64,000 bases of DNA. It comes from Alphaproteobacteria bacterium (lineage in GTDB: Bacteria > Pseudomonadota > Alphaproteobacteria > CALKHQ01). Under the pieces are notes generated by a model. It searched no databases and was not told the DNA's origin. It saw only the letters and a list, made by a program, of their open reading frames with translations. The position numbers and the translations under genes were made by a program. This document shows positions 2,284 through 6,552 of the stretch, in pieces. How positions within the stretch are numbered: position 1 is the first letter of the stretch; each line of letters starts with the position of its first letter. The stretch lies in the NCBI GenBank assembly GCA_965227515.1, contig CBDDFZ010000002.1, forward strand, positions 1,248,001-1,312,000. Direction: 5' to 3'.

Positions 2284-3168
2284 TCAACCGCCGATTGTCG
2301 GAAACGGTCGTCGCAGGTCCATCACGATTTTCTCGTAGTCCGGGCAATTGTCGGCATCCAGGTGCCCGTGCCGGACCAGGAAATCGATGACAACCAGGTT
2401 GCAGTTCCACTTGAAGTCGTCGGTCTGGAGCACGCGCGCCGCGAGTGCCGGGACCGGCCACAGCTCGAACCCCGCCACTTCGCCATCGGTGTTGCGGGGC
2501 ACGAAATCGGCCGGCAGGTCCAGGTCGTAGAGCAGCAGCGTGTCCGCCCTCATGTGACCTTCGGCGTTGGTGCCGCAATAGCTGACATGGCCGACCGGCT
2601 GCGCACGACGCGCCAGGTGCGGCGGTACGTCGGCCTCCTCGCCGGCTTCCTTGATCAGGTTATCGGTAACCGTGGCGTCGGCCGGCTGCCCGCCAGCGAC
2701 GAAATTGTCCAGCTCGCCCGGCGCGACCAGCCGGTCGTCGGCGCGGCGGCCGACCCAGACCCATGGTCCGTCAGGTTTCCGCACATAGCCGTTCACGTGA
2801 ACGCCCCAGGAGCGAATGCCCAGCAACGCCGCCGCGGCGCGGTCGACGGACGCCAACGGGGGCGCGGAAATGCTTGTCGCGATGCGGTAGTGCTCGCCGT
2901 ACAAGGCCTTGATGCGCCCATCCTTGGCCATCGGGTGCAACAGCGCGGCAAGTGCAGCGGTGCGCGCGGCAGGGGTTTCCAAGCCGGGGTGCAGGCGGAG
3001 CGGGCCCTCGGCATCGGCTGGCGCCGGCGCGAACGCGGGGTTGTCATCGGGCAATGCGTCGGCGAAGGCGCGCGGCATCCATCCGACGTGCTCGCCTGCA
3101 ATCGTCCAGGGCCGGTACGCGCTCAGCTCGGCACGGTTACAAAGCTCAATCCAGCGCAGGTAGGACAT
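2284..3168 (-). CDS. NUDIX hydrolase (DUF4743-associated, thiamine pyrophosphokinase-related)
   Basis: GVHVNGYV...WVGRRA...PGELDNFVAGGQPA...NLIKEAGEEADVP (Nudix box)...PRNTDGEVAGF. Confidence 0.85.
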   Translation of the reverse strand: MSYLRWIELCNRAELSAYRPWTIAGEHVGWMPRAFADALPDDNPAFAPAPADAEGPLRLHPGLETPAARTAALAALLHPMAKDGRIKALYGEHYRIATSISAPPLASVDRAAAALLGIRSWGVHVNGYVRKPDGPWVWVGRRADDRLVAPGELDNFVAGGQPADATVTDNLIKEAGEEADVPPHLARRAQPVGHVSYCGTNAEGHMRADTLLLYDLDLPADFVPRNTDGEVAGFELWPVPALAARVLQTDDFKWNCNLVVIDFLVRHGHLDADNCPDYEKIVMDLRRPFPTIGG

Positions 3169-4492
3169 TGGATCCGCCGCCTGTGGCACCTTCCGAGAGC
3201 CGGGCCGGCGCCGGTCCGCCGGTGGCCCAGTCGAGCAACTCCACAGTGTGGACGATCGGCGGGCCGTCCGGATCGCTCAACTGCGCGATGCATCCGATGT
3301 TGCCTGTCGCCACCAGCGGCGCGCCGGTGCGTTCGATGTTCGCCCGCTTGCGATCGCGCAGGCGCCCGGCGATCTCTGGTTGCATGATGTTGTAGGTGCC
3401 CGCCGAGCCGCAACACAGATGGCCCTCGCCGATCTCGCGCACCTGGAAGCCCGCCTCCGCCAGCAGGGCGCGCGGCTGGCTCAGGATGCGCTGGCCATGC
3501 TGCATCGAGCAGGCGGAGTGGTAGGCGACCGCGGTCGCGTGGTCCGCCGACTTGGCGGGCTGCAGGCCGATCTCGGCCATGAACTCGGTGACGTCCTTGG
3601 CGAGCGCACTGACCTCTGCCGCCGCTCCGGCCAGATCCGGGTCGGTGCGGAACATGAAGCCGTAGTCCTTCACCGTCGTCCCGCAGCCGGATGCGTTGAT
3701 GATCACGGCGTCCAGCCCGTCGCCGTCGCGCTCCGCAATCCAAGCGCGGATATTGCGCGCGGCCTGGCGGTGGGCGAGGTCGGACTTGCCCATGTGATGC
3801 ACCAGCGCGCCGCAGCAGCCAGCCTTGTTCGCCACCACGACATCGACGCCATGGCGTGTCAGCAGGCGGACGGTAGCCTCGTTGATCTCCGGCGCCAGCA
3901 CTTGCTGGGCGCAGCCGGTCATCAGCGCGACCCGTGCCCGCCTCGGGCCCTGGGCACGAAATATTTGGGGCCGATCCACCGGGGACGGGGCGGGCAGGCG
4001 CGGCGGCGCCAGCCGCAGCATGGCCCCCATGCGGGCGCCGAACCACCTGCCCACCACACCCGCAAGCGGGCGGGCCAGCGTGGCACCGGCGAGGGCCAGG
4101 CGGAACAGCCCGGGGCGCGGCAGCACGACCGCCAGCAGGCGCCTGAGCGCGCGGTCGTGCCAGGGGCGGCGATACGTCCGCTCGATGTGGTGGCGGGCGT
4201 GGTCGACCAGATGCATGTAGTGCACGCCCGACGGACAGGTGGTCATGCACGCCAGGCACGACAGGCAGCGGTCGACATGGCGGGCGACCTGCGCGTTGGC
4301 CGGACGATCGGCCTCCAGCATCTCCTTGATCAGGTAGATGCGGCCGCGCGGACTATCCAGTTCGTCGCCCAACAGCACGTAGGTCGGGCACGTCGCGGTA
4401 CAGAAGCCGCAGTGCACGCAACTGCGCAGGATGCCATTGGCCTCGGCGATGTCAGGGTCGGCGAGCTGTGCGAGACTGAATTTGGTTTGCAT
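3146..4492 (-). CDS. glcF: Glycolate oxidase iron-sulfur subunit
   Basis: MQTKFSLAQLADP; CVHCGFCTATCPTY and CLSCLACMTTCPSGV ferredoxin motifs; two CCG domains (CCGAL, CCGSAGTYN). Confidence 0.93.
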   Translation of the reverse strand: MQTKFSLAQLADPDIAEANGILRSCVHCGFCTATCPTYVLLGDELDSPRGRIYLIKEMLEADRPANAQVARHVDRCLSCLACMTTCPSGVHYMHLVDHARHHIERTYRRPWHDRALRRLLAVVLPRPGLFRLALAGATLARPLAGVVGRWFGARMGAMLRLAPPRLPAPSPVDRPQIFRAQGPRRARVALMTGCAQQVLAPEINEATVRLLTRHGVDVVVANKAGCCGALVHHMGKSDLAHRQAARNIRAWIAERDGDGLDAVIINASGCGTTVKDYGFMFRTDPDLAGAAAEVSALAKDVTEFMAEIGLQPAKSADHATAVAYHSACSMQHGQRILSQPRALLAEAGFQVREIGEGHLCCGSAGTYNIMQPEIAGRLRDRKRANIERTGAPLVATGNIGCIAQLSDPDGPPIVHTVELLDWATGGPAPARLSEGATGGGSNVLPALD

Positions 4493-4616
4493 GGATGGGC
4501 GGCCGTCTTGCTCAAGCCTCGTTCGGGTCGGGGCGTTGCGCCCAGCCTCGCATCACATTTTTCGGCGACCTGTCCACAGGCACTTGACTCCCTTTGGCCA
4601 CAGGCGCAGCCTTCGA

Positions 4617-5013
4617 TTGATGGATGCGCTGCGGACGGCCACGAGTTGAGCCTCCAGGCTCCACTCCCTGGACGTTTCTAGCACGGGCCACGTGCCCTGC
4701 GCACCATCGCGGAGCCCTACGGCGGGCGCGTCGTTTTCGAGCGACGTTGTGCCCCAGAACATGGAGGGTGTGTAAAAGCATGGAGCCGCCGAAGATACAC
4801 CTGCGGCCCCGCTTGGTCGGGGCCACGGCTTAGGTCCAACAGACGTATCGCGCGAACGTCGGTTGCCAGGCCGCCGACAACACGAAAAATGCGACAACGA
4901 ACGCCGCAGTGGGTTTGTCCCTGGGCGTTCGTCAGAGAATGCCCGACGATCCCGTTGGGCATCGGCCAAAGAGCCATTGAAACCCCGCTCGGCCACAGCG
5001 CCGGCGGGGTTTC
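4617..5013 (+). ncRNA. Candidate unannotated structured ncRNA (~400 nt)
   Basis: About 10 consecutive stem-loops, TTGACT at 4584 upstream, and a terminator-like GAAACCCCGC...GCGGGGTTTC at 4979-5013; no credible ORF. Boundaries and strand are inferred. Confidence 0.5.
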
Positions 5014-5131
5014 TGATTCCGGTTCATCCAAATTTGGCGCGGGTGTGAGGTGGCTAACACGGCCGGCGGCTATCTGGCCCCAAATCCCAGTCATCGCAAC
5101 GGCCAATAAGGCCAATCACTGGGAGCCTACC

Positions 5132-5332
5132 ATGAACAAGATCGCCGCCATCGCCGCCGCCCTGACCTTCACCGCTGCCGCCACCGGCTCGGCGTTTGCC
5201 GACACCGCGACCGACCTGGTCGAGGAGCTGTCGGCCCCGACGACCGAGAGCGCGTCGAAGAACTACATCTGCGAGTACGTCATCGTGTACGACGCCTGGG
5301 GCAACTACTACTACGAGACCGTCTGCTACTAA
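5132..5332 (+). CDS. Small secreted protein (66 aa) with a Tyr-rich, two-cysteine C-terminus
   Basis: GGGAG RBS, host-like GC3-rich codons, Sec signal MNKIAAIAAALTFTAAATGSAFA, own terminator downstream. Confidence 0.8.
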   Translation: MNKIAAIAAALTFTAAATGSAFADTATDLVEELSAPTTESASKNYICEYVIVYDAWGNYYYETVCY

Positions 5333-5361
5333 GCCGGTCTGCATTATCGGAAGGTGCTGAG

Positions 5362-5385
5362 GGCCCGGCCAACGCCGGGCCTTTT
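5362..5385 (+). terminator. Rho-independent terminator of the small secreted protein gene
   Basis: GGCCCGGC-CAAC-GCCGGGCC-TTTT. Confidence 0.75.
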
Positions 5386-5410
5386 GCCATGCATGCCGGT
5401 GTGCGCCGGC

Positions 5411-5439
5411 AAAGAAAAAGCGGGCCCGAAGGCCCGCTT
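5411..5439 (-). terminator. Rho-independent terminator of the sugar ABC operon
   Basis: AAAGAAAAAGCGGGCC-CGAA-GGCCCGCTT on +, giving a hairpin plus U-tract on the minus strand. Confidence 0.8.
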
Positions 5440-5463
5440 CCTCATTCAACAACGATGGCGCGC

Positions 5464-6462
5464 TCAGCCGCCGACGCAAGTGTCGACGTTGTCGGCATCG
5501 CAAATGTCCAGACCCGTGTAGAGCGGATCGGAAGGCATCACCCCGTCCATCATCTGGCGCAGGACGTACATCGAGCGGTAGCCCATCTCCCACGGGCGCT
5601 GGCCGACCAGGCCGTGGGTGTCGCCGGCACGCAGGAAGTCGAGCTGCACCGGCAGGGTATCGGCGATGACCACCGTCAGTTCGCCGGCATCCATCCGCTC
5701 ACGCGCGGTGGAGATGACCTGGGCGAAGGCGTTCGGCGCGAAGTGCGGGAAGCCGCCCGTCGCCACGAAGATGTCCAGGTCCGGGTAGGTCGCGAACACA
5801 TCGGCCATCTGCTGCACCGACAGCGGGAAGTCGTCGTTGGTGTACAGCGGGGAGACCTCGACCTCGGTGAAGCCGTTCTCGCCTTCCAGGCGCGGGCCCG
5901 GGTTCGGCTCGCCCGAAACCTCACCGCGCAGGGTGTCGCGGATACCGGCCATACGCTCGTTGTGGTTGGCCGCCGCCGCACCACCCGACTGGATGACGAT
6001 GGTGCCGCCGTCCGGGTTCATGGCCTTGATCTGCTCGGCCAGGCCGACGCCGATCATGTAGTTGTGGGTGCCCACATAGGCGGCGCGCATGCCGGCGTCT
6101 TCCGGCAGCAGGTCGCTGTCCCAGGTGATGACCGGGATGCCGGCGTCTGCCGCACCCTGCAGCACCCGCGCCATGGCCGGCGCGTTCGACGAGGCGACCG
6201 CGATGCCATCCACGCCCTGGCTGATCAGATCCTGCACGATCTGGAGCTGGTCGGCTTCAGTGTGCTCGGCCGGGCCGATGTAGTAGCACTCGACGTCCGC
6301 CAGCGCTTCGGCGGCCACGAAGCAGCCGTCGCGGGCCTGGTCGAAGAACGGGTTGTTCATCGCCTTTGGCACCAGTGCGAACGTGTAGGTGTCTTGCGCG
6401 CTTGCCGCGAACGGCACGGCCAGGACGGCCGCAGCCGCCGTGGCAAAGAATAGGTTCTTCAT
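5464..6462 (-). CDS. Sugar ABC transporter substrate-binding protein (RbsB-like)
   Basis: Signal peptide; FALVPKAMNNPFF, QGVDGIAV, IPVITWDSD, GLVGQRPWEMG. Confidence 0.9.
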   Translation of the reverse strand: MKNLFFATAAAAVLAVPFAASAQDTYTFALVPKAMNNPFFDQARDGCFVAAEALADVECYYIGPAEHTEADQLQIVQDLISQGVDGIAVASSNAPAMARVLQGAADAGIPVITWDSDLLPEDAGMRAAYVGTHNYMIGVGLAEQIKAMNPDGGTIVIQSGGAAAANHNERMAGIRDTLRGEVSGEPNPGPRLEGENGFTEVEVSPLYTNDDFPLSVQQMADVFATYPDLDIFVATGGFPHFAPNAFAQVISTARERMDAGELTVVIADTLPVQLDFLRAGDTHGLVGQRPWEMGYRSMYVLRQMMDGVMPSDPLYTGLDICDADNVDTCVGG

Positions 6463-6552
6463 GCGTCTTCTCCTCCCCAGGTCTTCATTGGGATCTCAGT
6501 TTTTTGGTCGATGTACGCGGACGACCGTTCGCGCATCGACCGTACAATAGCA

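Follow-up and report, generated by a model that had tools for sequence, protein, structure and literature searches.

A discrete, lineage-restricted non-coding RNA of ~340-380 nt without a known family, encoded upstream of glcF in an alphaproteobacterium

Does the hairpin-rich gap between glcF and a small-peptide gene in this alphaproteobacterial genome give rise to an RNA of its own? By direct reading, the gap spans 639 nt (4493-5131) of the window, as we call the whole 64,000-nt stretch of DNA that was analysed. A preliminary description of the window proposed that this gap encodes an unannotated, highly structured and independently transcribed non-coding RNA of ~400 nt or, alternatively, a long regulatory leader of the downstream peptide gene. 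Our combined findings show that it gives rise to a real, lineage-restricted orphan non-coding RNA of ~340-380 nt that has no known family.

The gap is non-coding. Its G+C content is 63.2%, versus 69.7% in glcF, and unlike the two genes on its flanks, which both have a strong third-position G+C bias, it shows none. None of the six gap ORFs matched a Pfam domain. Eleven ORFs of at least 20 amino acids overlap positions 4600-5030 (six within the gap, three from glcF, one partly in the RNA and one running into the peptide gene), all of them arginine-rich and off-frame-like. The earlier statement that the gap holds no credible ORF is thus borne out. A protein-coding gene or pseudogene was rejected for want of codon periodicity, of a Pfam match and of a glcE remnant; the latter was sought with the GlcE protein of the family relative G001, for which the best match in the gap had an E-value of 0.31. 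Also rejected was a 147-codon frame (4889-5332) that is in frame with the peptide gene. Its third-position G+C climbs only past ~5100, it contains the terminator-like hairpin at 4979-5013, and its upstream part is not kept in the family relative G003. At its 5' end, glcF matches genes annotated as glcF on plasmids, among them those of Paracoccus. Short matches to the gap across the class sit in unrelated genes. A repeat element (repetitive extragenic palindrome or MITE) was discarded since the stretch is single-copy and finds only itself, with the remaining matches in its own genome being 15-80 nt long and having E-values of at least 0.044.

We searched for the locus in public sequencing runs, using window positions 4000-5600 (1601 nt) as the query, and seven runs were listed. 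One of them contains the query in full and is possibly the source sample; the other six carry just 9-20% of the query words. Three of these six are recorded as metatranscriptomic RNA, their samples bearing the label jellyfish metagenome; the other three carry a different organism label, with their RNA status only guessed. Contigs were aligned to the locus from four of the six, two of which are on record as metatranscriptomic, and the small shares of the other two runs are not counted as evidence. Each of the four runs yielded exactly one contig, with no mismatches and lying entirely inside the gap (Table 1), and the contigs had neither loose ends nor any continuation into unlike sequence. Cover was zero in all four runs on the 493 glcF bases of the query (4000-4492), on the 145 nt from 4637 to the glcF start, and on positions 5026-5600, which hold ~470 bases of the peptide gene and the region beyond it. 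Because the organism's DNA would cover the flanks as well, the contigs represent RNA rather than DNA carry-over. Thus, an RNA at least 343 nt long, discrete and with borders of its own, accumulates well above both of its neighbours, as expected of the separately accumulating large non-coding RNA that had been proposed. The runs were examined at this one locus. Their sizes are given in contig letters, so no share of any library is claimed for the RNA; the two groups of runs may stem from one campaign, which limits their independence.

Table 1 Features of the locus and of the genome. Positions are those of the window unless a contig (C1, the large contig; C2, the 1.45-Mb contig that carries the window) or another locus (L002, L107) is named. 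Hairpins and linker are predicted; energies are in kcal/mol.
Feature	Position	Strand	Details
glcF	3146-4492	minus	Pfam CCG and 4Fe-4S domains
TTGACT	4584-4589	plus	RNA left edge 48 nt downstream; promoter role not supported
RNA body	4637-4980	plus (probable)	left edge 4637-4641, right edge 4927-4980
Run contig	4638-4980		343 nt, depth 23.8
Run contig	4637-4945		309 nt, depth 4.8
Run contig	4641-4973		333 nt, depth 4.5
Run contig	4640-4927		288 nt, depth 2.6
Hairpin 1	4643-4666	plus	9 pairs, one U-C mismatch, directly past the 5' end; -12.1 on both strands
Hairpin 2	4681-4695	plus	5 pairs; -6.9 on plus versus -5.4 on minus
Hairpin	4714-4723		from local folding
Hairpin with UUCG loop	4724-4754	plus	two G-U pairs (A-C mismatches on the other strand); -15.9 versus -11.2 on minus
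Long-loop hairpin	4764-4803	plus	7-mer CATGGAG just before the stem (4760) and in the loop (4779)
G+C hairpin	4804-4824	plus	7 pairs; -14.4 on plus versus -16.6 on minus
Interrupted hairpin	4826-4873	plus	19 pairs; -19.9 on plus versus -17.1 on minus
A-rich linker	4874-4896	plus	unpaired in the minimum-energy fold; CGACAAC at 4875 and 4892
Hairpin	4897-4932	plus	14 pairs; -21.3 on both strands
Hairpin	4939-4962	plus	10 pairs, one G-U; -15.9 on plus versus -12.0 on minus
Terminator-like hairpin	4979-5013 (to 5021 with tail)	plus	14 pairs; -26.4; tail TTTCTGATT overlaps the last bases
Peptide-gene leader (neighbour, outside the RNA)	about 5031-5131	plus	conserved
Small-peptide ORF	5132-5332	plus	66 codons, signal-peptide-like N-terminus, good Shine-Dalgarno
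Peptide loci	5031-5332; L002 about 1485-1800; L107 about 835-1143
RNase P RNA	C2:981243-981674		261 bits
6S RNA	C1:1045097-1045252		72.6 bits
alpha-tmRNA	C1:305198-305515		257.5 bits

The contigs carry no strand and no exact ends. Their left ends fall within 5 nt of one another whatever the depth, and the right end reaches furthest in the contig of highest depth. A fixed left and a fading right border would correspond to the sharp 5' end and fading 3' end of an RNA in random-primed libraries, which suggests transcription from the plus strand. Individual hairpins were more stable on the plus strand in six cases, on the minus strand in three and equally stable in two, and the hairpin energies in the core sum to 123.8 kcal/mol on the plus strand versus 111.1 kcal/mol on the minus strand. 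The G-U pairs, previously taken to favour the plus strand, do so by number (seven versus three), whereas the z-scores of the global folds are about equal on both strands. On the plus strand a U-rich tail follows the hairpin at 4979-5013, which is likely the 3' end of the RNA; this hairpin sits before the peptide leader exactly as the rpsD terminator does in G003. A simple terminator scan did not list it. Overall, the RNA is probably encoded on the plus strand, with a length of ~380 nt from ~4637 to ~5015-5021.

A TTGACT motif upstream of the RNA had been put forward as a promoter element. The sequence is there, but it has no -10 element and would start transcription near 4615, with the 5' end of the RNA (~4637) lying ~25 nt further downstream. 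In a sigma-70 consensus scan neither promoter match precedes 4637, and no motif common to the region upstream of 4637 and those upstream of the RNase P, 6S or tmRNA genes was seen. Since no recognisable promoter precedes 4637, the 5' end may be a processing site. A motif common to the upstream regions of 6S RNA and the peptide gene was dropped, having three occurrences in the genome versus ~1 expected. Inside the RNA, the A-rich linker gives rise to two entries of the consensus scan: on the plus strand a promoter-like site (4863-4890; TTGCCA, 16 nt, AAAAAT), and on the minus strand a terminator-like hairpin (4908-4880) that has a T run. The contigs span 4863-4908, so at least some molecules run through these sites.

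Local folding reproduced every stem-loop with which the preliminary description had tiled the gap between glcF and the peptide gene. The plus strand of 4584-5013 has a minimum free energy of -203.9 kcal/mol compared to -175.3 ± 6.2 kcal/mol for 100 dinucleotide shuffles (z = -4.64), none of which folded as well. The z-score does not discriminate between strands because the minus strand folds about equally well (z = -4.43). For the RNA-covered core (4637-4980) it is only -2.47 and -2.37 on the plus and minus strands, respectively, and a long-range closing helix, together with the terminator-like hairpin, accounts for much of the folding excess. As a genome control, 23 random 430-nt windows had a mean z-score of -1.52 (sd 1.83), with three at -4 or below; the target's own value in this re-run was -3.92. 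Folding is thus above shuffle level, yet within the upper tail of this genome (66.6% G+C) and not exceptional, and by itself it would not carry the claim of a non-coding RNA. Of the earlier wording, "~400-nt highly structured", the advantage over shuffles stands; as a modelled property, "highly structured" refers to thermodynamics only, with a core z-score of about -2.5 and 3 of the 23 genome windows being comparable. There is no covariation support for the fold because our searches found no homologue to align, and k-mer repeats in the RNA do not go beyond shuffle level and so offer no clue to a binding partner. The A-rich linker would be a candidate interaction site according to the predicted fold, in which the unpaired probability exceeds 0.7 for its A run at 4885-4889 only.

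We sought known RNA families in positions 3500-6500 by running cmscan with permissive filters against Rfam 15, and found none at the gathering cut-off, in keeping with the earlier suggestion of an unannotated RNA. The sole match overlapping the RNA was P15 (RF00627), with 15.5 bits versus a cut-off of 70 and an E-value of 4.6; there were no others at E-values of up to 10. A divergent housekeeping RNA was rejected, since the genome's own RNase P RNA, 6S RNA and alpha-tmRNA were found elsewhere, above their cut-offs; for RNase P and tmRNA this agrees with the earlier reading, which had seen no hallmarks of either in the gap. A literature search found nothing specific to this RNA, and our claim of novelty is limited to its absence from Rfam 15.

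Homologues were sought at several phylogenetic distances. BLAST searches found none in 60 relatives, only noise of 15-40 nt in three genomes of the same family at E-values of up to 10, and matches of at most 47 nt in 400 genomes of the class, with 25 other genomes having matches at E-values of 0.01 or lower. Among the class-genome matches to the RNA body, one sits in a gene for a transporter and another in an amidotransferase-like gene, and two further loci that were checked match the G+C-rich terminator hairpin only. With the peptide as an anchor, no loci were found in metagenome contigs. With glcF as an anchor there were 80 (the best being 72% identical), and neither blastn nor nhmmer found the RNA in them. 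An exact 24-mer from the RNA is absent from the genome and viral contig collections. A covariance model built from a single sequence, that of the 3' half (4804-4965), reached a best non-self E-value of 0.074 in 60 genomes and found no match in the three family genomes. The homologues with covariation that the preliminary description had looked to were thus not found in these searches. However, the order comprises only four species genomes in the collection, and absence of relatives is also expected for this reason.

The genomic surroundings of the RNA are themselves specific to the lineage. In G001, glcE directly abuts glcF (locus L006, 1480-4073). In the genome studied here, the glcE orthologue (62% identity) is found on the large contig, at C1:498437-499678, and the window's copy of glcF, alone on C2 with its 639-nt upstream gap, is the only true one. 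With glcE on C1 and glcF on C2, the RNA gene lies at a lineage-specific rearrangement junction. The RNase P RNA gene is located on the smaller contig (1.45 Mb), so this replicon has an essential gene and behaves like a second chromosome or a chromid. Genes for two RNA-related proteins, CsrA (PF02599 at C1:1396031-1396183, 70.1 bits) and Hfq, are present in the genome.

On the other side of the gap, the peptide gene has a leader of ~95 nt that is kept in three peptide loci with different upstream neighbours: this RNA, the rpsD terminator and a divergent gene. A common fold of this leader is possible and may be a hairpin, with its 3' part overlapping the ribosome-binding site. The peptide family is rare, being found in this genome and one family relative only, and has a signal peptide and a conserved, aromatic-rich C-terminus with two cysteines; a weak second match to this C-terminal motif is found in the same genome at C2:639046-639105 (E 0.2). 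Further downstream, two successive G+C-rich terminator-like hairpins (window 5340-5450) separate the convergent peptide gene from a periplasmic-binding-protein gene (5464-6462, minus strand). These hairpins have weak, sub-threshold Rfam matches to the sRNA terminator regions SorX, sX14 and sX6 (E 2.5-3.9).

We propose that the gap contains a stand-alone non-coding RNA gene on the plus strand, from ~4637 to ~5015-5021, whose product of ~380 nt may be a trans-acting regulatory RNA; taken as a whole, we put this reading at about an even chance. The RNA would be a string of ~ten local hairpins with one A-rich single-stranded linker, would end in a hairpin of the Rho-independent type with a U-rich tail, and would be restricted to a genus-level lineage, at the junction separating glcF from glcDE. 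A trans-acting regulatory role fits the length of 340-380 nt, the modular hairpins, the unpaired A-rich linker, the U tail of the terminator and the presence of an Hfq gene. Hfq-dependent trans-acting sRNAs have an intrinsic terminator with a U tail as well as single-stranded A-rich or U-rich sites for Hfq, in a genome with an Hfq gene; observed here are the terminator-like hairpin with its TTTCTGATT tail, a predicted unpaired A-rich linker and an Hfq gene. As to the mode of action, our best guess is Hfq-assisted base pairing in trans, which we put forward tentatively; binding or titration of a protein is another guess, which we rank only slightly lower.

Several other explanations for the RNA have to be weighed against this one. 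The contigs could stem from DNA, from a contaminant or from a fragment common to another organism, as RNA status is no more than a guess for three of the six runs with small shares, and the organism's presence in the runs was judged at this one locus. Against such an artefact, two of the four aligned runs are on record as metatranscriptomic, the four contigs lie completely in the gap without mismatches, loose ends or unlike continuation, and the organism's DNA would cover the flanks. In addition, the stretch is single-copy in the genome and its 24-mer is absent from the genome and viral contig collections. We consider this the least probable of the explanations. The RNA could also be a cis-acting riboswitch- or attenuator-like leader of the peptide gene that mostly stops at 4979-5013, the alternative raised in the preliminary description. 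It is common for terminated leaders to show up as short RNAs of high abundance, and the RNA is oriented like the peptide gene and located 119 nt ahead of it, with a terminator between the two. However, such a role is disfavoured because the peptide gene has its own conserved leader (~5031-5131), kept at three loci that differ in their upstream neighbours. Furthermore, the RNA does not travel with the gene, being absent from the two other peptide loci, both of which are in one family relative, and no riboswitch family matches it, all of which makes a peptide leader very unlikely.

A leader on the opposite strand is decidedly improbable as well. In this case, the contigs would represent a stable fragment of the glcF 5' leader, with its start near 4980 or upstream of it and its end, formed by processing or attenuation, near 4637. 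Having lost its operon partners, glcF needs a promoter inside the gap, the contigs are strandless, and overall folding is as good on the minus strand as on the plus strand (minus-strand z = -4.43 and -2.37 for the longer stretch and the core, respectively). Yet both glcF and the 145 nt before it are uncovered in all four runs, the minus-strand hairpin at 4666-4643 has no U-tract behind it, and a start at 4980 would place the promoter inside a perfect G+C hairpin. The G-U pairs and local energies favour the plus strand, and the sharp end of the contigs would have to be a 3' end, a less usual pattern of coverage. Finally, the RNA may be real but functionless, a young transcript of the junction that arose when glcF was parted from glcDE and accumulates only because its hairpins and terminator let it resist nucleases. 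Absence of conservation even in the family is what such a transcript would show. The gap is a lineage-specific junction with glcE on C1 and glcF on C2, homologues are missing from all three family genomes, the 400 class genomes and the 80 metagenomic glcF loci, and the folding z-score is inside the genome's upper tail. On the other hand, the borders of the RNA are discrete, its depth reaches 23.8 with both neighbours unassembled, and it has a dedicated terminator-like hairpin; a lack of relatives is also expected with only four species genomes in the order. We regard absence of function as unlikely.

How does the proposed regulatory RNA compare to known bacterial RNAs? Lineage-specific intergenic sRNAs are a class known from (meta)transcriptomics. 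Similar to these, the RNA reported here is intergenic, non-coding and discrete, has a terminator-like 3' hairpin and no Rfam family, and is found as its own molecule in community RNA data. Papers on such sRNAs include PMC7368042 and PMC5069720. Base-pairing sRNAs are usually a half to a quarter as long as the candidate (~340-380 nt), which is without a known seed, target or conservation. Protein-titrating RNAs of the CsrB/RsmZ type carry many GGA motifs, mostly in hairpin loops. The candidate is like them in its size of hundreds of nucleotides, its many local hairpins and its end terminator, and CsrA is encoded in the genome. Nonetheless, a CsrA sponge was rejected: the RNA has four GGA motifs in 377 nt versus 6.7 ± 2.0 in 300 shuffles, with two of the four unpaired and no AGGA, and it has no Rfam match to the CsrB/Rsm families. 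It shares with 6S RNA (RF00013), RNase P RNA and tmRNA the property of an abundant, stable, structured RNA that stands above mRNAs, but matches none of them and is predicted to be a chain of separate hairpins, not one long interrupted helix. GOLLD, ROOL, OLE and raiA are large orphan structured RNAs and, like the candidate, exceed the usual size of bacterial non-coding RNAs; in contrast to the candidate, for which our searches found no relative, they are conserved across many genomes with strong covariation. In a bolder reading, which we find quite unlikely, this deep-branching and sparsely sampled alphaproteobacterial order would have an undescribed class of large (~380 nt) RNAs with high expression and a regulatory or protein-binding role, of which this RNA would be the founding member. 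Expression would take place on an animal host, as suggested by the labelling of the metatranscriptome samples as jellyfish metagenomes, and the small number of sequenced species in the lineage, four, would be all that keeps its relatives from view.

A hairpin-rich gap flagged from sequence alone thus gives rise to a real, separately accumulating RNA. The reach of this finding is limited to the present lineage until relatives are sequenced. If the RNA is functionless, it would be an example of structure alone making a junction transcript abundant. If it has a function, a barely studied alphaproteobacterial lineage would have a regulatory RNA of unusual length and, with the split of glcDEF as the known rearrangement junction, a clean case of a young RNA gene at such a site.
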